Positions 3,060-58,125 of a DNA stretch of 64,000 nt are shown in pieces. This stretch comes from Eubacteriales bacterium (lineage in GTDB: Bacteria; Bacillota; Clostridia; Oscillospirales; CAG-272). Under the pieces are notes generated by a model. That model was not told where the DNA came from. It saw only the letters and a program-made list of their open reading frames with translations, and did no database searches. A program made the translations under genes and the position numbers. Position 1 is the stretch's first letter; each line of letters begins with the position of its first letter. The stretch covers positions 10,281 through 74,280 of the forward strand of contig JAZSOD010000085.1 in the NCBI GenBank assembly GCA_045536775.1, read 5' to 3'.

Positions 3060-3455
3060 TTAAGTTTTGGTAAAGGTTACCGTTTTGCAGACCGGACACG
3101 TAACCTTAAGCTCTCCCCTGCCCTTGGGTACTCTGAGATTGTTGTGACACGTACTGCACTCAAAATATTTATGAGTTTTCCTGTCCTTGAGCTTATTCTT
3201 TTCAAGTCTGAACTTCTTTGAAAGCGAGCTTTTAATATTTAGGAATTTCACGTTCTCCGCAGAGCGTCTGTAAATGTTTTTTGACAAAAATCTGTAAATT
3301 TCCCAGATCATCAGAGCGTACGACGCGATATAGAGGAGTTCAAATGAAAATACCGACGATATAAGAGACAAGTAAATTGACATTATTAAAATAGCGTACC
3401 CAAGCTTGTCGATACCGTATCTGCCGTACATAAATCTATAAAACTTTTCTTTCAT
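3060..3455 (-). CDS. Small membrane protein with C-terminal zinc ribbon
   Basis: 131 aa with an RBS GGAGA 8 nt upstream. It has two hydrophobic helices followed by CSTCHNNLRVPKGRGELKVTCPVCK (CxxC...CxxC). Confidence 0.6.
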   Translation of the reverse strand: MKEKFYRFMYGRYGIDKLGYAILIMSIYLSLISSVFSFELLYIASYALMIWEIYRFLSKNIYRRSAENVKFLNIKSSLSKKFRLEKNKLKDRKTHKYFECSTCHNNLRVPKGRGELKVTCPVCKTVTFTKT

Positions 3456-5465: not shown

Positions 5466-6533
5466 ATGATTAACAACGAAAGAACCCCCTGCTCGCTTAC
5501 AACCAAAGATTTCTGGTATAACCTACCTGAGGAGCTTATAGCTCAGACCCCGTCTGAAAAGCGCGACCATTCAAGACTTATGGTACTGAACAGAGAAAAT
5601 CGAACGGTTACCCACAAGAGCTTTTACAATATTATCGACTACTTAAACAAGGGCGATGTTCTTGTTATCAATAATTCAAAAGTCATACCCGCAAGACTTT
5701 ACGGCGCTAAGGCGGATACAGGTGTCCCGATAGAAACGGTTTTGCTTCGTCAAAAAAAGCTTGACGTTTGGGAAGCTCTTACAAGACCGGGCAAAAGATG
5801 TAAACCCGGCACTAATATTATATACGGAGAGGGGATTCTCCGTGCCGAGGTTATAGATACGATCGAGGGCGGCAACAGGATATTGTCATTTACCTATGAT
5901 AAAGAAAAATATGAAAACATCTACAACGTGCTTGAGCTTGTCGGCAATATGCCTCTCCCGCCTTATATAACCGAAAAGCTCTGTGACAACAGCCGCTACC
6001 AGACGGTATATGCCGAGCACGAGGGCTCTGCTGCTGCGCCAACGGCAGGACTGCATTTTACAAAGGAGCTTTTGTCTGAAATTCAAGCGAAAGGCGTTAA
6101 AATAGCACCGGTTATGCTTCACGTTGGTCTTGGCACATTCAGACCCGTCAAGGTCGATAATCTTACCGAGCACGTTATGCATACTGAATTCATTTCGATT
6201 TCCGAGGAATCCGCAGATATCATCAACGAGTGCAGAAGAAGCGGAGGCAGAGTTATAGCAGTTGGTACAACATCATGCAGAACGCTTGAAAGTGCATCTG
6301 ACGAAAACGGAATGGTTCATTCCGTAAGCGGAGATACCGGTATTTTTATATATCCCGGATATAAATTCAAAGTAACAGATGCTCTTATAACTAATTTTCA
6401 TTTGCCCGAGAGCACACTTTTGATGCTTGTCAGCGCGCTTGCAGATAAAGATTTTATAATGAATGCCTACGAAACCGCGATCAACGAACGCTACAGATTC
6501 TTCTCTTTTGGTGACGCTATGCTGATAGTATAA
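5466..6533 (+). CDS. queA: S-adenosylmethionine:tRNA ribosyltransferase-isomerase
   Basis: 355 aa. The N-terminus F(W)[24 protein letters not shown] and the C-terminus [14 protein letters not shown] are characteristic of QueA. RBS is GGAGA. Confidence 0.95.
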
Positions 6534-10211: not shown

Positions 10212-10505
10212 GTGGCTAACATAAAATTTACGTTTATGTATTTATTCACAAGCATAATCGACGTGTTTCTTTCTCTTACACTCTTTATGATGCTTGTGAG
10301 GGTCATACTATCCTGGTTGCCCATCTCTGAAGATAACGCAATCGATGAATTTGTATATATGGTGACGGAGCCGTTTATTATACCTATAAGGATTATTTTT
10401 GATAGGTTTAATATTTTGAACGGCCTGCCGATCGACATACCGTTTTTTGTATCATACGTACTCCTTACTTTTTTGCAGAGATTCGTTTCATTTATCAGAG
10501 GTTAG
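10212..10505 (+). CDS. YggT/YlmG-family membrane protein
   Basis: 97 aa with a GTG start. It has two TM helices with the motif MLVRVILSWLP, and sits in the conserved position after sepF. Confidence 0.8.
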   Translation: MANIKFTFMYLFTSIIDVFLSLTLFMMLVRVILSWLPISEDNAIDEFVYMVTEPFIIPIRIIFDRFNILNGLPIDIPFFVSYVLLTFLQRFVSFIRG

Positions 10506-13586: not shown

Positions 13587-14402
13587 ATGAAATTTGAAAA
13601 CAAATTAATCGTTAGCGATCTTGACGGTACTTTTTTTGATTCCGAAGCAGGAATGGTTGGCATTAACATAGACGCCATTAATTACTTCAAGGAAAACGGC
13701 GGTTATTTTACGTTTGCAACCGGTAGAAACGAGTTAACATTAGAGCCCGATGTAATAAAGCTTGTAAATGCTCCTATAATTTGCTGTAACGGCTCTTACT
13801 TATATGACTCCGAAAGCGACCGCAGGATAAGAGAAATCTGCATTGCACCGGGTCCCTTACTTTCAATGATAAAAACCGTTTTATCAAGCTTTTCCGATAT
13901 AGGAGTAAGAGTAACTGCTGACACAAAATATTACGTTATCGGTGAATCTCTGAAGCAAAACCTTAAACGAATCAGTGCAAACCCCGAGCTTTTCGTCGTT
14001 ACTGACGCAGACAATCTTCCTACATACGATTGGCACAAGGTTGTTTTTGTTGGAGATGAGGAAAATCTTGATCTTGCCTCTAAGTTTATAAAAGTTAAAG
14101 CAGAAGGGCTGTATCAGATCGCACGTTCTTCACCAACCCAACTTGAAATTTTCAATCTTAAAGCGACTAAAGGTATCGGAGCACTCGAGGTCAAGCATAT
14201 GCTTGAAGCCAGACACGGTCCCATTTCTATGTACGGTATCGGTGATTATGAAAACGATATTGATTTGTTGAAAGTCTCTGATGTTGCGGCGTGTCCCGAA
14301 AACGCTCTGAAAGAAGTCAAGCTTTTTTCGGACGTAGTTGTTTGTTCGAACGATAACGGCGCCGTTGCAGGACTTATAGAATACATAGACTCATTGATAT
14401 AA
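13587..14402 (+). CDS. Cof-type HAD-IIB phosphatase
   Basis: Motif I is VSDLDGTF. It also has ATGR and a GDYENDIDLL motif with a cap-domain insertion. Confidence 0.8.
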   Translation: MKFENKLIVSDLDGTFFDSEAGMVGINIDAINYFKENGGYFTFATGRNELTLEPDVIKLVNAPIICCNGSYLYDSESDRRIREICIAPGPLLSMIKTVLSSFSDIGVRVTADTKYYVIGESLKQNLKRISANPELFVVTDADNLPTYDWHKVVFVGDEENLDLASKFIKVKAEGLYQIARSSPTQLEIFNLKATKGIGALEVKHMLEARHGPISMYGIGDYENDIDLLKVSDVAACPENALKEVKLFSDVVVCSNDNGAVAGLIEYIDSLI

Positions 14403-14405
14403 AAA

Positions 14406-14440
14406 ATGAACCTTTGCGACTGCAAAGGTTCATTTTTTTA
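14406..14440. terminator. Bidirectional terminator between the HAD gene and the recombinase gene
   Basis: ATGAACCTTTGC-GACT-GCAAAGGTTCAT, a 12-bp perfect stem flanked by A6 on the left and T7 on the right. It overlaps the recombinase stop codon at 14430. Confidence 0.85.
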
Positions 14441-15440
14441 TATCTGCCATTGGATTTGCTTCGGCTGCGGCTCTCATAGAATCGTCGCTTACGTGAGTGT
14501 ATATCTGGGTAGTATTTAGTTGCTCGTGCCCAAGTATGTCCTTGAGTACTCTTACGTCTACCTTGCCTGTCCTGTACATTAGCGTTGCCGCTGTATGACG
14601 CAGCTTGTGTACAGACATTTTTTTGTTTTCAAGTCCTGCTCGTTCAAGATATTTTTTTACTACCCACTGCACCGTTTTCACGCTGATCCTTGTTCCGAGC
14701 CTGCTTAAAAATAATGCGTTCGTATCTTTAATATCAAGTCTTTTGTTCTGAACGCTCAAATGAGAAGTGATAGACGTCTTGCAAGCATTATTCAGATATA
14801 AAACTCTCTCCTTGGAGCCCTTTCCGACTACTCTTACCGTAGACAGATCAGCGCTGATATCTGTTTTGTTTATTCCGACAAGCTCGGACAAACGCATTCC
14901 ACAGTTGAGAAAAAGCGTTATTATTGCATAATCTCTGTCAACAAACGGCGACTCTTCATCCTCCGCTACCGCATTTAGCAGAAGCTGGGCTTCTTCAAGT
15001 GTCAAAAATTTTGGTAGGCTTTTCTTGGGCTTCGGACTTTCTATATCTTTTACAGGATTGTGATCCGTTAAATGCATTTTAACGGTAACGTATTTAAAAA
15101 AATTTTTTACCGCAGATAGCTTCCTCGCTCTTGCACACCATTCGTTTCCCCGTATGCTTTGCGCGTATATAAGATATTCATATACGTCAACGGTTGTTAT
15201 CGTGTTAAGGAAAGAAACGTCGACGCCGCTTATATCTACAGATGAAAACTCTTCATAGCTTGTGAGCTTTGCCGATGACAATCCTTTGTGTATCAACATG
15301 AATTTAAGGAAGATTCTGAGGTCTCCCGCATATTCTTCAACGGTTTTAGGAGATTTATTTTCAATAACGAGCTTGCTCATACAGTATTCTCGCACAACAG
15401 GTGGCAATCCCAAAAGTTTTGAGCTTATATCAGCGGGCAT
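14430..15440 (-). CDS. Tyrosine site-specific recombinase, XerC/XerD family
   Basis: 336 aa with RBS AAGGAGA 7 nt upstream. It has an N-terminal SAM-like core-binding domain (KSPKTVEEYAGDLRIFLKF). Catalytic motifs are GMRLSELVG, HKLRHTAAT and LGHEQLNTTQIYTHV. Confidence 0.85.
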   Translation of the reverse strand: MPADISSKLLGLPPVVREYCMSKLVIENKSPKTVEEYAGDLRIFLKFMLIHKGLSSAKLTSYEEFSSVDISGVDVSFLNTITTVDVYEYLIYAQSIRGNEWCARARKLSAVKNFFKYVTVKMHLTDHNPVKDIESPKPKKSLPKFLTLEEAQLLLNAVAEDEESPFVDRDYAIITLFLNCGMRLSELVGINKTDISADLSTVRVVGKGSKERVLYLNNACKTSITSHLSVQNKRLDIKDTNALFLSRLGTRISVKTVQWVVKKYLERAGLENKKMSVHKLRHTAATLMYRTGKVDVRVLKDILGHEQLNTTQIYTHVSDDSMRAAAEANPMADIKK

Positions 15441-52262: not shown

Positions 52263-52291
52263 ATTATATTCCGTAGTACATTATTCGTCAA
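52263..52291 (-). promoter_or_regulatory. Putative pepD promoter
   Basis: The minus strand reads TTGACG (52286-52291), 17 nt, TATAAT (52263-52268). Confidence 0.55.
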
Positions 52292-52337: not shown

Positions 52338-54632
52338 TCAGAGCTTGTTTCGCTGAATCTTTCCGCTTACAGTCTTGGGGAGACTCTCCCTGAATTCAAC
52401 CACTCTCGGATACTTATATGGAGCCGTCTTTTCCTTGACGTAATTCTGAATCTCACGCTTCAGCTCGTCGCTCGGCTCCTTACCGTTGACAAGAACGATA
52501 CTCGCCTTTACGATCTGCCCTCTTACCTCGTCGGGAACTGCCGAAACACCGCATTCAAGAACGTAAGGAAGCTCCATAATTACACTCTCGATCTCGAACG
52601 GACCGATGCGGTAACCAGATGACTTTATAACGTCATCAACTCGTCCTACGTACCAATAATATCCGTCCTCATCGCACCATGCAACATCTCCCGTATGGTA
52701 ATAACCGTCATGCCATACCTCGCGGGTCTTTTCTTCGTCACCGTAGTAACCCGTGAACAAACCGCAGGGGGCGCCGTTTCTGATATCTATAACGATCTCT
52801 CCCGACTCACTCGTCTTAACGGGGTTTCCATCAGCATCCTGAAGCTCGACCTTATAAATGGGAGCAGGCTTACCCATAGAACCTATCTTGTGGGGCTTTC
52901 CTACGAGATTACCGATTATCATCGTGCTTTCGGTCTGACCAAAGCCCTCTTTAATCTGAAGTCCGGTCGCCTTTTCAAACTGACGGTACACCTCGGGATT
53001 AAGCGCTTCTCCTGCTGTTGTCATATGACGTACAGAAGAAAAATCGTATTTTGAAATGTCCTGCTTTACCATCATACGAAGCATTGTAGGAGGTGCGCAG
53101 AAGGTTGTTATATGATACTTTGCAAACATAGGAAGTATATCCGCTGCATCAAAACGGTCAAAATCATAAACGAAGGTTGCCGCTTCACAGAGCCACTGTC
53201 CGTAGAGCTTGCCCCACATTGCCTTTGCCCAACCGGTATCGGATATTGTAAAGTGAAGCCCGTCGGGATCAACGTTATGCCAATATTTTGCCGTATGGAA
53301 ATGTCCAAGCGGGTATTTGTGGTTATGAGTTGCGATCTTCGGATATCCCGAGGTTCCCGAGGTGAAGTACATGAGCATAGTATCCTCACCGCAAGGAGAA
53401 TCCTCAGTCCTATCGAAGTGTGTACTGAAGCGCTTGTATTCCTCGTCGAAATCTCTCCAACCATCTCTCGCGCTTCCGACAACAAGCTTATTTATAAGCG
53501 TCGGACACTTGACTGCCGCAAGGTCCACCTGATTTGCAACATCGCCATCGCCCGTACAAACTATCGTGCTTACACCTGCAGCATTGAAGCGGTATTCGAG
53601 ATCGTGCTCGTGAAGCTGGTCAACTGCAGGAATTGCAATCGCTCCAAGCTTATTAAGTCCGAGCATAGCTATCCAGAACTGATAATGACGCTTTAAGATA
53701 AGCATTACTCTATCGCCCTTCTTAATTCCGAGCGAAGCAAAGTAGTTTGCACACTGATTGGATGCTCTTCTCATATCGGTAAATGTAAAGCGTCTTTCTG
53801 TCTTGTCCTTTGATATGTGGAGCATAGCAAGCTTTTCGGGTTCACGCTTTGAAAGCTCGTCAACAAGGTCAAAGGCAAAGTTGAATTTGTTTTCATTTTT
53901 GAAAGTTATAGACGTGGGCGTACCACTTTCGTCTTCAACGATATCAATAAAATTATGGTAAATTCTGTCCTTTGTATCTCTGTGGACCGAACCGATTATC
54001 TGCTCGGTTTTAACGATATCCGAGGTTGCTGATTCCGAAACGTCAACGTCACCTCTAAGAACTATGGCATAGAACTTACAATCCTTACCGTTTACCGCTA
54101 TCATACCGTGCGGAGTATCGGAATTATAGTAAATGCTATCACCGGGGCCAAGGACCTCCTTGTGATCACCAACCTGTACCATAAGGTGGCCTTCTATTAC
54201 GATATCACATTCTTGGCCCGCGTGAGTTGTAAGCTCAATATCTCTGTTCTGCGCAGACTCATCGTAAGAGCTGAGAACGTAAAGAGGCTCAGCAATGCGG
54301 TTTTTGAAGGCGTAAGCAAGATTGTGATATATCATACCGTGCGCCTTAGCTATCTGCTGTCCCGCACCTGCTCTTGTTACGGTATACGATTTAAGATTAG
54401 GGCTATAACCCTCGATAATATCCGTTACGTTTACTCTGAGCGCCGCGGCACAACGGTAAATAAACGCAAAGTTGAGATCAGACTCGCCGTTCTCACATCT
54501 GACGTATTCTTCGACCGTAATTCCCGTCTTCTCGGCCATTTCTTCGGGAGTGTAGTTTTCGATGATTCTGAGCTCACGGATACGCTCCGCCATCTCTTTG
54601 ATCTTAAGATTAATGTCTCTTAGGTTTTCCAT
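52338..54632 (-). CDS. Fusion protein: XRE-type HTH + cupin domain + medium-chain acyl-CoA synthetase-like adenylate-forming enzyme
   Basis: The track ORF (to 54755) is an artefactual extension through the T-box terminator. The real start is ATG 54632 (MENLRDINL...) after AGGAGA. The HTH reads YTPEEMAEKTGITVEEYVRCENGESDLNF. The cupin reads HAGQECDIVIEGHLMVQVGD...PGDSIYYNSDTPHG. AMP-binding motifs are YFTSGTSGYPK, ISDTGWAKAMW, GYYHTGD, SSGYRIGPFEIES and the C-terminal SGKIQR. Confidence 0.85.
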   Translation of the reverse strand: MENLRDINLKIKEMAERIRELRIIENYTPEEMAEKTGITVEEYVRCENGESDLNFAFIYRCAAALRVNVTDIIEGYSPNLKSYTVTRAGAGQQIAKAHGMIYHNLAYAFKNRIAEPLYVLSSYDESAQNRDIELTTHAGQECDIVIEGHLMVQVGDHKEVLGPGDSIYYNSDTPHGMIAVNGKDCKFYAIVLRGDVDVSESATSDIVKTEQIIGSVHRDTKDRIYHNFIDIVEDESGTPTSITFKNENKFNFAFDLVDELSKREPEKLAMLHISKDKTERRFTFTDMRRASNQCANYFASLGIKKGDRVMLILKRHYQFWIAMLGLNKLGAIAIPAVDQLHEHDLEYRFNAAGVSTIVCTGDGDVANQVDLAAVKCPTLINKLVVGSARDGWRDFDEEYKRFSTHFDRTEDSPCGEDTMLMYFTSGTSGYPKIATHNHKYPLGHFHTAKYWHNVDPDGLHFTISDTGWAKAMWGKLYGQWLCEAATFVYDFDRFDAADILPMFAKYHITTFCAPPTMLRMMVKQDISKYDFSSVRHMTTAGEALNPEVYRQFEKATGLQIKEGFGQTESTMIIGNLVGKPHKIGSMGKPAPIYKVELQDADGNPVKTSESGEIVIDIRNGAPCGLFTGYYGDEEKTREVWHDGYYHTGDVAWCDEDGYYWYVGRVDDVIKSSGYRIGPFEIESVIMELPYVLECGVSAVPDEVRGQIVKASIVLVNGKEPSDELKREIQNYVKEKTAPYKYPRVVEFRESLPKTVSGKIQRNKL

Positions 54633-54644
54633 TTCTTCTCCTTT

Positions 54645-54925
54645 TATGAGGCATAAAAAAATCGCCCCAAAGTAAAGTAAAAACTTTGAGACGAGTGTAA
54701 ATTCACCCGCGGTACCACTCAAATTGCGATAAAATCGCCACTCCGGGTCAAACAACCCTTATGCATTAACGCAGCAATCACGGAAAGGTTCTACTCGCTT
54801 TCGCTTTCTTCCTTCCGGCTCGGAAGCTACAAACAACTCCACTCACCCATGGCTCGCACCGACCGCCATTTCTCTCAAGGGTTTATGTAAGATGCCCTCT
54901 TCGTCAAAGCCTTTATATGTGTTAA
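54645..54925 (-). promoter_or_regulatory. T-box riboswitch leader (tRNA-sensing transcription attenuator)
   Basis: Read in the minus-strand sense. Stem I base with K-turn is GGCTTTGACGAAG...CTTCCGAGCC. The AG-bay is TTGAGAGAA and the distal loop is GGTCGGTGCGA. An F-box-like GCGTTA and Stem III GCGATTTTATCGC follow. The T-box is AATTTGAGTGGTACCGCGGGTG. The antiterminator is TTTGAG[TGGTACC]GCGGGTG-AATTTA-CACTCGT-CTCAAA. It competes with the terminator CGTCTCAAAGT-TTTTACTTT-ACTTTGGGGCG + A-T7 (54654-54693). The ATG is 22 nt downstream. Confidence 0.9.
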
Positions 54926-54952
54926 TATACCACAATTAAATAAATCTGTCAA
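54924..54952 (-). promoter_or_regulatory. Promoter of the T-box leader
   Basis: The minus strand reads TTGACA (54947-54952), 17 nt, TGG-TATATT (-10 at 54924-29, extended -10 TG). Confidence 0.65.
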
Positions 54953-54976
54953 TACTTTGACAAGATTTTTATAAAT

Positions 54977-55009
54977 TACAGCCGCAGTAATCTAAACTGC
55001 GGCTGTAAT
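54977..55009 (-). terminator. Terminator after putP
   Basis: TTACAGCCGCAGT-loop(7)-ACTGCGGCTGTAA, a 13-bp perfect stem followed in the minus sense by ATTTATAAAAATC. Confidence 0.75.
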
Positions 55010-55016
55010 ATGTAAT

Positions 55017-56552
55017 TTAGTCATCAATACTGTTATCAGTTGCTTTTTCAAAAATAGCATTGACCTCAGCGGAGGGAGCTTTATCGATGAGCGTAACGAT
55101 AATAGCGGCAATTCCACCAATTATAAATCCCGGAATGATCTCATAAACACCTGTAACTGCGCCAAGAGTATTTCCTCCGACAACGGGAAGCCAGAGCCAA
55201 CACATATCAACGAGTGCACCTACGATTATGCCGGCAACAGCTCCTTTATATGTAAATCTTTTCCAAAAGAGTGAGAAAAGAACAACAGGTCCGAATGCCG
55301 CTCCGAATATGCCCCATGCATTTGAAACGAGATCCATAATAGCCTGTGCAGCCTTACCCTTACTGCTTGCAATAAAGTAAGCAATAACAGCAATTACAAG
55401 TACCACAACACGGCTAACCCAAAGCATTTCTTTATTAGAAGCATTTTTTCTAACGAGCGGCTTATAAAGGTCGCTTGAGAACGATGATGCCGCAACGAGA
55501 AGCTGTGAATCCGCCGTCGACATAGACGCCGCAATAATCGCAGCAAGAAGAAGTCCTGCTATGAAAGCGGGGAAAACATCACGAGCAAGCTCGACAAATA
55601 TAAGCGACTGTTTTCCTTCGGCAAGAAGCTTTGCAGAAAGATCTACGCCGTTAGAATATACGAACATTCTTCCGAGATAGCCTATAGCAATAGTTGCGGC
55701 GAGCGAAAGAACGACCCATATAATAGCAACGGTAGCAGATTTCTTTACCATCGACGGCTTCTTGATAGCCATAAATCTGACAATAATATGAGGCATACCG
55801 AAGTAACCGAGACCCCAGCCGAGACCCGAGAGAATTTCCTGCCAGCTTGCATTAAAGAAAGTAGAAACGAACTTAAACTCTTCGCCGTTAGGTCCTGTAT
55901 ATATAGTATTTATTGCGTTAGGATCAAGGTCCTTAACAGATACTATAGTTATCGGAACTATAAGAAGCGCGGCAATCATAAGAAGTCCCTGGAAAAAGTC
56001 TGTCCAACAAACTGCCCTAAAGCCGCCAAGGAAGGTATACGCAAGAACTATTGCCGCAAATATAAGCATGGCGGTCGTTCTCTGAAGCTCGGGCACGAGC
56101 GTTGTGAAAACGTCAGCGCCTGCAACGAATGCCGATGCAACATATATCGTGAAGCATACAAGGAACACTATAGCGCAAATAATACTTACGGTATGGCTCT
56201 TGGATGCAAAACGATTGGACAAATACTGAGGAAGTGTTATAGCATCACCCGACGCCTTAGAAAACTTGCGAAGTCTCTTGGCAACAAGTATCCAGTTAGC
56301 TGCAGTACCGATTGCAAGACCGATACCGATCCAAGCCTGTCCGAATCCGAACGCAAGAATGCTTCCGGGAAGTCCCATAAGAAGCCAAGCGCTCATATCG
56401 GATGCCTGAGCACTCATAGCCGTAACCCAAGGTCCCATCTCTCGTCCGCCGAGGAAGTAATCCTTTTCAGTCGTTGCCTTGGACTTGAAAAAGAAAAACA
56501 GGCCAATGGCAATCATAGCAACAAAATATAAAGAAAACGCTAATATGTCCAT
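55017..56552 (-). CDS. putP: Sodium/proline symporter (SSF family, PutP-like)
   Basis: 511 aa. DYFLGGREMGPWVTAMSAQASDMSAWLLMGLPG, GWGLGYFGMPHIIVRFMA and AWGIFGAAFGPVVLFSLFW closely parallel E. coli PutP motifs as I remember them. Confidence 0.88.
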   Translation of the reverse strand: MDILAFSLYFVAMIAIGLFFFFKSKATTEKDYFLGGREMGPWVTAMSAQASDMSAWLLMGLPGSILAFGFGQAWIGIGLAIGTAANWILVAKRLRKFSKASGDAITLPQYLSNRFASKSHTVSIICAIVFLVCFTIYVASAFVAGADVFTTLVPELQRTTAMLIFAAIVLAYTFLGGFRAVCWTDFFQGLLMIAALLIVPITIVSVKDLDPNAINTIYTGPNGEEFKFVSTFFNASWQEILSGLGWGLGYFGMPHIIVRFMAIKKPSMVKKSATVAIIWVVLSLAATIAIGYLGRMFVYSNGVDLSAKLLAEGKQSLIFVELARDVFPAFIAGLLLAAIIAASMSTADSQLLVAASSFSSDLYKPLVRKNASNKEMLWVSRVVVLVIAVIAYFIASSKGKAAQAIMDLVSNAWGIFGAAFGPVVLFSLFWKRFTYKGAVAGIIVGALVDMCWLWLPVVGGNTLGAVTGVYEIIPGFIIGGIAAIIVTLIDKAPSAEVNAIFEKATDNSIDD

Positions 56553-57897: not shown

Positions 57898-57975
57898 TGG
57901 GGTGAGATATCGGATTCGAACCGACGGCCTTCAGGGCCACAACCTGACGCTCTAACCAACTGAGCTAATCCCACC
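57898..57975 (-). tRNA. tRNA-His (anticodon GTG)
   Basis: Manual cloverleaf: G(-1) GTGGGAT TA GCTC AGTTGGTTA GAGC G TCAGG TTGTGGC CCTGA AGGCC GTCGG TTCGAAT CCGAT ATCTCAC C CCA. The encoded G-1:C73 pair is the His identity element. CCA is encoded. Confidence 0.93.
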
Positions 57976-58048: not shown

Positions 58049-58125
58049 TGGCGTACCCTGGGGGATTCGAACCTCCGACCTACTGCTTAGAAGGCAGTTG
58101 CTCTATCCTGCTGAGCTAAGGGTAC
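58049..58125 (-). tRNA. tRNA-Arg (anticodon TCT)
   Basis: Manual cloverleaf: GTACCCT TA GCTC AGCAGGATA GAGC A ACTGC CTTCTAA GCAGT AGGTC GGAGG TTCGAAT CCCCC AGGGTAC G CCA. There is one A.C mismatch in the T stem. CCA is encoded. Confidence 0.85.

Follow-up and report, generated by a model that had tools for sequence, protein, structure and literature searches.

Why should a riboswitch that reads the charging of a tRNA stand in front of a gene for a coenzyme A (CoA) ligase? The question is raised by a 64,000-nucleotide (nt) stretch of contig JAZSOD010000085.1 (assembly GCA_045536775.1, an Eubacteriales bacterium of the Oscillospirales; positions 10,281 to 74,280 of the forward strand), which is called the window here in its whole length. 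On its minus strand, a T-box leader (54684-54916) precedes a gene (52338-54632, ATG at 54632) for a protein of 764 amino acids (aa), in which a helix-turn-helix (HTH) domain and a cupin are fused to an AMP-forming acyl-CoA synthetase. The answer proposed is that the leader is a transcription-attenuating T-box for tRNA-Val (anticodon UAC, discriminator A73), and that it probably drives an isobutyrate-CoA ligase serving valine synthesis via reductive carboxylation. Branched-chain volatile fatty acids have been known since the 1960s as growth factors of fibre-degrading rumen and gut anaerobes, and are fed to ruminants as 'isoacids'. To our knowledge, the genes of Clostridia for the isoacid activation step, and their regulation, are poorly defined.

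Two samples of loci were compared with the window. One consists of the best 80 orthologue loci, whose proteins are 75-98% identical to the window gene product; the other consists of 120 metagenome loci, from contigs scanned for the T-box 19-mer AATTTGAGTGGTACCGCGG and selected by that 19-mer alone. Together they form a set of 200, cited by locus number where needed. All coordinates of the leader and its gene are on the minus strand.

The leader RNA

Is the leader a T-box? The Rfam model RF00230 matches 54684-54916 (Stem I, Stem II, the Stem IIA/B region, Stem III and the antiterminator) over its full length (model positions 1-219 of 219, no truncation) at 84.9 bits. Scored in E-value mode, the match has E = 5.6e-19 for a 601-nt stretch and 6e-17 for the whole 64-kb window. 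A preliminary description of the locus, made from the sequence alone, had proposed a T-box here and had named this model as a check; the match is significant, though below the curated gathering score of 93 bits. A default Rfam scan of the window, run at the gathering threshold, lists only two tRNAs and no T-box, as 84.9 bits falls below 93. Among orthologous leaders, that of L056 (90.4 bits) also fails, and those of L062 (93.5 bits), L003 (100.3 bits) and L070 (105.4 bits) pass. The leader family straddles the gathering score (84.9-105.4 bits), and threshold-based annotation therefore misses many copies.

Stem I (54817-54911) has a kink-turn (K-turn) base (GGC...GAAG / CUUC CGA GCC), the specifier loop, an AGAGA bay (54875-54871) that is invariant in orthologous leaders, and the distal loop GGUGCGA (54860-54854). 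Because minimum-free-energy folding of Stem I alone is uninformative (z -0.32), covariation was used, with an alignment of Stem I from 71 orthologous leaders (A2) and with two controls, 500 shuffles and sliding of the pairing partners. Of the cells counted for the Stem I structure, 88.9% are paired, versus 76% when shuffled and 31-44% when slid; changes on both sides occur in 21 of the 23 pairs, and no shuffle (0/500) reached the observed measures. Stem II (GGAAGG AAGAAAGC...GAGUAGAACCUUUCC; 54782-54816) and an F-box-like GCUGCGUUA in the Stem IIA/B region (54767-54775) were placed by covariance-model alignment. Stem II is conserved, with compensatory changes visible in orthologues, and the orthologues keep GCTGCGTTA or GCTGCGTAA at the F-box-like site. 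The K-turn, AGAGA, GGTGCGA, F-box-like and T-box elements had all been picked out in the preliminary description, and each of them was found in place.

A promoter scan gives a sigma-70-type promoter at 54924-54952, with TTGACA (54952-54947), a 17-nt spacer and TATATT (54929-54924), as had been read from the sequence before. It agrees with the consensus at 11 of 12 positions and carries a TG extended -10 (54932-54931); every orthologous leader is preceded by the same promoter layout. The leader itself is present at 76 of the 78 orthologue loci with enough upstream sequence: 73 copies were recognized by pattern (a T-box motif at most 400 nt upstream, 73 of 80 loci), to which are added the copy in L064 and the copies cut by contig ends in L053 and L066. 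Save for the curated score, the RNA conforms to a canonical T-box in all the structural features tested.

A perfect 6-4-6 palindrome, TGTCAA-AGTA-TTGACA (54943-54958), overlaps the -35 hexamer. It was considered as an autoregulatory operator and rejected, as it is common only to the 98%-identical L001 and is not kept in the other orthologous promoters.

The specifier codon

Which tRNA would the leader read? In the RF00230 alignment, the codon columns (consensus 'uuc' + 'a') land on GUA (54830-54828), a valine codon, and on the conserved purine G (54827); together these four nucleotides (54827-54830) lie directly 5' of the CUUC helix. The helix beside the specifier loop (GAAG/CUUC) is paired in 100% of the 71 leaders, with the compensatory variants GGAG/CUCC, GAGG/CCUC and GAAA/UUUC, and this fixes the register of the loop, whose 3' strand is the 7-nt UUUGUAG (54833-54827). 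Of the 71 orthologous leaders whose specifier was parsed, 62 have the same strand. The others read UCGGUAG (three: L057, L063 and L065), AAUGUAG (two), and UCUGUAG, GUUGUAG, GUUGUAA and UUUGGAG (one each). GUA is thus kept in 70 of 71, and so is the purine after the codon. The valine call had been tentative in the preliminary description, which had pointed to an alignment of orthologous leaders; the model alignment, the fixed register and the conservation of the codon now agree on it. The AGGG that the description had noted on the 5' side of the loop is indeed present in the window; many orthologues have AGUG or AGUA there. Valine T-boxes prefer specifiers ending in 3'-A or 3'-C, according to TBDB (PMC7778990).

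Could the specifier be UGU (Cys), or lie in another register, so that tRNA-Val is not the tRNA sensed? UGU does overlap GUA in the window loop UUUGUAG. Nevertheless, this reading is very improbable, as the UCGGUAG loops of L057, L063 and L065 lose UGU and keep GUA, the fully paired adjoining helix sets the register, the model assigns its codon columns to GUA, and a paralogue leader described below has AUC in those same columns. The UGGU bulge of the antiterminator pairs with A73, and the discriminator of bacterial tRNA-Cys is U73. The loss of UGU, with GUA and the purine retained across orthologous leaders, is the ground for rejecting a cysteine specifier, which the preliminary description had itself doubted.

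Antiterminator and terminator

The T-box sequence AAUUUGAGUGGUACCGCGGGUG occupies 54704-54725 and has the bulge UGGUACC (54717-54711), of which UGGU is 54717-54714. UGGU is invariant in the orthologous leaders, and such a bulge, by known covariation, calls for discriminator A73. The antiterminator (54685-54723; -11.4 kcal/mol) is built of helix A1 (UUUGAG/CUCAAA), the 7-nt bulge and helix A2 (GCGGGUG/CACUCGU). Helix A2 retains 6-7 of its 7 pairs in all 73 leaders, with compensatory variants that include GCGGAUG/CAUUCGU and GCGGGUA/UACUCGU. The intrinsic terminator (54655-54694; -14.7 kcal/mol, z -6.5) is a 12-bp hairpin (54694-54662) followed by U7 (54661-54655); a terminator hairpin with a T-run is found in 71 of 73 leaders, at a mean of -18 kcal/mol. 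Since both structures use the same 10 nt (54694-54685), antiterminator and terminator are mutually exclusive. The T7 run, the shared arm and the exclusive folds had been recognized in the preliminary description; its stem of 11 bp is one pair short of that computed here.

The regulated protein

The gene has a ribosome-binding site, AAAGGAG, at 54638-54644. Its product was described beforehand as an unusual T-box target, a fusion of HTH, cupin and adenylating enzyme, and Pfam bears this out: an XRE-type HTH_3 domain (PF01381, aa 18-71, 54420-54581; 30 bits versus a cut-off of 23), Cupin_2 (PF07883, aa 132-190, 54063-54239; 45.7 bits versus 27.2), and AMP-binding (PF00501, aa 261-630; 209 bits) with AMP-binding_C (PF13193, aa 680-758; 73.7 bits), the last two at 52359-53852. 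The catalytic motifs (SGTSGxPK, GQTE, YHTGD and the A10 Lys) are intact, and are invariant in the family alignment (A1).

What does the enzyme activate? Among NCBIfam models MbcS (NF047394) scores best, and among solved structures 3ETC_A, which is MacsMa of Methanosarcina acetivorans, comes closest (636 bits over aa 247-762). The acids that MbcS selectively activates are 2-methylbutyrate and isobutyrate (PMC10026030), and MacsMa prefers 2-methylbutyrate as acyl substrate (PMC10455477). In the alignment with 3ETC, whose numbering offset was calibrated on YHTGD 431-435, the window protein has GFGQTE, where Gly replaces the pocket Trp of Acs, and GWAKAMW473 against GWGKCVW259. W473 corresponds to MacsMa Trp259, reported to be critical for acyl binding. 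The protein is most likely an AMP-forming short branched-chain acyl-CoA synthetase that would convert isobutyrate to isobutyryl-CoA.

The amino-terminal 250 aa have only weak matches in PDB and NCBIfam (RemF, 1Y9Q, PuuR, HppE). In a comparison with 1.8 billion representative proteins, many stand-alone proteins of ~185 aa, plus a few fusions of ~760 aa, match residues 8-192 end to end. The fusion therefore contains a whole XRE-cupin module like that of a regulator, and the HTH and cupin residues of this module do not vary within the family. No conserved inverted repeat was found in 70 orthologous promoter regions; operator targets elsewhere were not searched.

The family is widespread. Relatives occur in at least 573 species-representative genomes, and at least 8000 protein clusters are matched by the window protein. 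All come from metagenome-assembled genomes of gut or rumen Clostridia (ruminant and human gut for the orthologues), and their sources label them 'AMP-binding protein' or 'cupin domain-containing protein'.

Val-type and Ile-type paralogues

Does the codon follow the enzyme? At 15 loci, the gene is directly preceded by that of a 755-aa paralogue of the same architecture, which stands behind a T-box of its own. The specifier region reads CCC-AUC-A/G in the leader of this paralogue versus UUU-GUA-G in that of the 762-aa copy. In L056, the Ile leader (3069-3312) scores 86.7 bits and the Val leader (5694-5945) 90.4 bits with the Rfam model, and AUC-A and GUA-G align to the same columns. The metagenome loci, an independent sample whose specifier codons were obtained by a strict pattern parse and manual reading, show the same partition: all 28 Val-like enzymes (28/28) have GUA or GUC, and all 31 Ile-like enzymes (31/31) have AUC. 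The latter include three synthetases of 551 aa that lack the XRE-cupin module.

The two groups also differ in the protein. A comparison of 93 Val-type with 36 Ile-type proteins, with at least 90% conservation required within each group, gives seven discriminating positions: R60K, I72L, R112K, P163E, A469G, M472L and M571L. Four of the seven are in the XRE-cupin module. Of the others, 469 and 472 are 4 and 1 residues before the pocket residue W473, and 571 comes just after the GFGQTE motif. With Gly469, the Ile type agrees with MacsMa, which prefers 2-methylbutyrate; the bulkier Ala469 and Met472 of the Val type would fit a smaller pocket for the C4 acid. The specifier codons may in this way be read as built-in functional labels, GUA for the valine-linked paralogue and AUC for the isoleucine-linked one, and they offer testable substrate assignments (isobutyrate versus 2-methylbutyrate) throughout the family.

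The module-less synthetases of L083, L115 and L180 stand behind a T-box reading CUU-AUC-A (Ile). As these enzymes also follow a T-box, the link between riboswitch and enzyme is independent of the fusion.

Other genes behind related leaders are of interest. On a related metagenome contig (L199), a valS leader with the same T-box 19-mer reads AAG-GUA-G (137 bits) and precedes a ValRS gene (1275 bits). At L093, L124, L130, L188 and other loci, AUC T-boxes with this 19-mer stand before BrnQ-type branched-chain amino acid carriers, and AUG-G leaders stand before proteins of ~428 aa. In L149 (8219-11551), a T-box reading GAA-CUC-A (Leu; 116 bits) immediately precedes the genes of a 2-oxoacid:ferredoxin oxidoreductase with four subunits (gamma, delta, alpha, beta), a hint that reductive carboxylation to leucine, too, is under T-box control. 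A synthetase paralogue with a Leu specifier was not found in the sampled loci, the metagenome scan being limited to one 19-mer.

An operon with VOR and IlvE

In about 20 loci or species, many of them labelled Acutalibacteraceae or Oscillospiraceae, a conserved operon lies behind the Val-type gene. Its order is a CbiA/ParA-like P-loop protein, a 70-aa delta subunit with two [4Fe-4S] clusters, VorB, a beta subunit, a gamma subunit and the branched-chain aminotransferase IlvE. VorB is called by NF005507 (537 bits versus a cut-off of 399) and IlvE by NF009897 (487 bits versus 307); the beta subunit binds thiamine pyrophosphate, and the whole is a 2-oxoisovalerate:ferredoxin oxidoreductase (VOR) of the VorDBAC type. 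This set is exactly what the conversion of an acyl-CoA to a 2-oxoacid and then to an amino acid needs. A candidate complete operon is thus at hand: CoA ligase, VorDBAC and IlvE.

The P-loop gene starts 12 nt downstream of the synthetase gene or overlaps it by 4 nt, an arrangement of translational coupling. Its product, an NTPase of 221 aa in L056 (8302-8967) with equivalents in L057, L063, L066 and L072, has no NCBIfam match; it may help in the maturation of Fe-S clusters or of enzymes.

Proposed mechanism

How would the parts work together? In the established T-box mechanism, uncharged tRNA stabilises the antiterminator. By default, the 12-bp terminator would form here, and transcription would halt short of the gene. 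In valine shortage, uncharged tRNA-Val would dock on Stem I, its anticodon pairing with GUA and its free NCCA end with UGGU of the T-box bulge; the antiterminator would be stabilised, and RNA polymerase would enter the 764-aa gene. The synthetase would then activate isobutyrate to isobutyryl-CoA, a VOR-type oxidoreductase would carboxylate this reductively to 2-oxoisovalerate, and IlvE would transaminate the latter to valine, which is the classical rumen 'isoacid' route. The binding of the tRNA, the substrate and the direction of flux are predicted from sequence. The conversions of isobutyrate to valine and of 2-methylbutyrate to isoleucine are documented in rumen bacteria (PMC7356843, with reference to Allison & Peel 1971 and to Robinson & Allison 1969).

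Several observations weigh against this interpretation. The window leader does not reach the curated RF00230 cut-off, and the protein does not reach that of its best NCBIfam model: at 441.3 bits, against an equivalog cut-off of 850, MbcS is the nearest named family, yet the window protein is no MbcS orthologue. Two orthologues, those of L012 and L029, have no T-box in the 450 nt upstream (5550-6000 and 1130-1576, respectively), so T-box control is not universal. One leader, that of L002 (~1180-1190), has GGA as specifier, whereas the near-identical L003 has GUA; the GGA may have arisen in assembly, or it may be genuine. The perfect association of codon and enzyme in the metagenome loci (59/59) probably stems from one duplication, and is therefore to be read as conservation and not as 59 independent events. 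Neither the window nor any of the 200 loci yielded a gene for tRNA-Val or tRNA-Ile. When neighbouring open reading frames were clustered at the 80 orthologue loci, contexts were mostly variable and the gene monocistronic, as it is in the window; and tblastn detected no homologues of VorB, the beta and gamma subunits, IlvE or the P-loop protein within the 64 kb. That the T-box still governs amino-acid supply is argued from the enzyme family, the VOR/IlvE operon elsewhere and the paralogue with an Ile specifier.

Are there better explanations? That the leader is a chance resemblance, or a decayed and non-functional T-box, would account for its score below the Rfam threshold. It is so improbable as to be negligible, given E = 6e-17 in the window, a leader kept at 76 of 78 loci, covariation in Stem I and the antiterminator, and orthologous leaders with 93.5-105.4 bits. 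The main rival accepts a valine-specific T-box and holds that the enzyme, like MbcS of Staphylococcus aureus, mainly makes isobutyryl-CoA to prime the iso-branched fatty acids of the membrane, with valine starvation a proxy for primer shortage. MbcS is the top NCBIfam model for the protein, and it feeds FabH with isobutyryl-CoA and 2-methylbutyryl-CoA (PMC10026030); moreover, neither VOR nor IlvE is encoded next to the gene in the window and at most loci. Priming is nevertheless unlikely to be the chief role, for about 20 species couple the gene, or link it tightly, to VorDBAC and IlvE, and a T-box reads tRNA charging, which signals demand for the amino acid itself. Both roles may coexist.

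The amino-terminal module raises a different question: is the protein chiefly a transcription factor? As such a trigger enzyme, it would bind DNA through the XRE-cupin module and sense branched acids through the synthetase, with the T-box setting the dose of regulator. Residues 8-192 are homologous to stand-alone HTH-cupin proteins of ~185 aa (PuuR and 1Y9Q match weakly), no variation is seen in the HTH and cupin residues, and four of the seven positions that discriminate the paralogues are in this part. Yet all the adenylation and thioester motifs, the A10 lysine included, are invariant as well, as expected of an active enzyme; the orthologous promoters have no conserved operator-like repeat, the -35 palindrome being shared with L001 only; and the 551-aa synthetases of L083, L115 and L180 are under T-box control with no module at all. 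This proposal is unlikely.

Could the module instead add a second input to valine and isoleucine synthesis? The T-box would report demand, through uncharged tRNA-Val or tRNA-Ile, and the XRE-cupin part would report supply or flux, regulating unlinked VOR and IlvE genes or its own enzyme. Candidate signals would be its own acyl-adenylate or acyl-CoA, or a 2-oxoacid bound by the cupin. Such two-input control of isoacid assimilation by a riboswitch-gated trigger enzyme is a speculative extension and rather unlikely to be correct. If true, it would, with the Leu T-box of L149, amount to a T-box regulon for the synthesis of all three branched-chain amino acids by reductive carboxylation in gut Clostridia.

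Relation to known systems

How far does this locus depart from what is known? With canonical transcriptional T-boxes (RF00230; tyrS, glyQS and valS of Bacillus subtilis) it shares the K-turn, the codon followed by a purine, the AG bay and distal loop, Stems II, IIA/B and III, and an antiterminator with a UGGN bulge, whose rival fold is an intrinsic terminator. It differs in that the gene is neither for an aminoacyl-tRNA synthetase nor a classical biosynthetic gene nor one for a transporter; in addition, the leader lies just under the curated score, the specifier loop has AGGG, not AGUA, on its 5' side, and GAG stands in place of the usual GGG before UGGUACC. Branched-chain amino acid T-boxes, such as that of the Bacillus ilv-leu operon, are known in Bacillales and Clostridia (PMC2494555), and there too uncharged branched-chain tRNAs induce genes of supply. 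Here, however, the source proposed is not the acetolactate pathway but the salvage of a volatile fatty acid, activated with CoA and then reductively carboxylated, and separate Val and Ile leaders serve separate, presumably substrate-specific paralogues.

The enzyme part is like MacsMa (3ETC) and S. aureus MbcS in fold, in motifs, in the Gly for the Acs pocket Trp and in the alternative pocket Trp (W473). Unlike them, the window protein adds a 250-aa amino-terminal XRE-cupin module and is under riboswitch control, and unlike MbcS, its proposed role is in amino-acid synthesis and not in fatty-acid priming. A DNA-binding domain fused to an enzyme is also found in PutA and in BirA, an HTH joined to a biotin-adenylating ligase that likewise makes an acyl-adenylate; the likeness is architectural only, as the HTH here is of the XRE type and comes with a cupin.

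A further parallel is the reductive carboxylation of isobutyrate, 2-methylbutyrate and isovalerate to valine, isoleucine and leucine in the rumen (Allison and co-workers, as cited in PMC7356843). Substrates, products and habitat are the same, and in some species VOR and an aminotransferase are linked to the gene described here. That classical work is biochemical and is not known to name genes or regulation, whereas the present system is known from genomes alone. The locus thus contributes candidate genes and a control logic for a rumen pathway whose biochemistry has been known since the 1960s.

No paper was found that ties T-boxes to acyl-CoA synthetases, isobutyrate or VOR, in a search that was thin on subscription journals, so that an earlier mention is possible; CoA enzymes are not mentioned in a 2008 survey in BMC Genomics. 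The new part is the regulon member, a widespread unannotated family that the Val and Ile leaders, with the VOR/IlvE linkage, assign to isoacid assimilation.

Neighbouring genes and minor observations

In the window, the fusion gene has a PutP-type symporter gene upstream (55017-56552, minus strand) and genes for a PepD-like dipeptidase and SecA downstream. A GC-rich hairpin of 14 bp (54975-55009) comes just after the symporter gene and is likely to shield the T-box promoter from transcription arriving from upstream. Behind the fusion gene, a search for a terminator gave none, and some read-through into pepD is therefore possible. A promoter-like site, TTGACG-17-TATAAT (52263-52291), lies between the fusion gene and the PepD-like gene; among the orthologue loci, the PepD-like neighbour is common only to L001.

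Elsewhere in the window, a weak match to Rfam BSnc120 at 14387-14497 (34.8 bits versus a gathering score of 114, E 2e-4) is probably due to chance. The tRNA genes of the window, tRNA-His(GTG) and tRNA-Arg(TCT), are on the minus strand at 57898-57974 and 58049-58125. The same pair adjoins the orthologous locus in L001, and in L033 and L043 it is found inside larger tRNA clusters.

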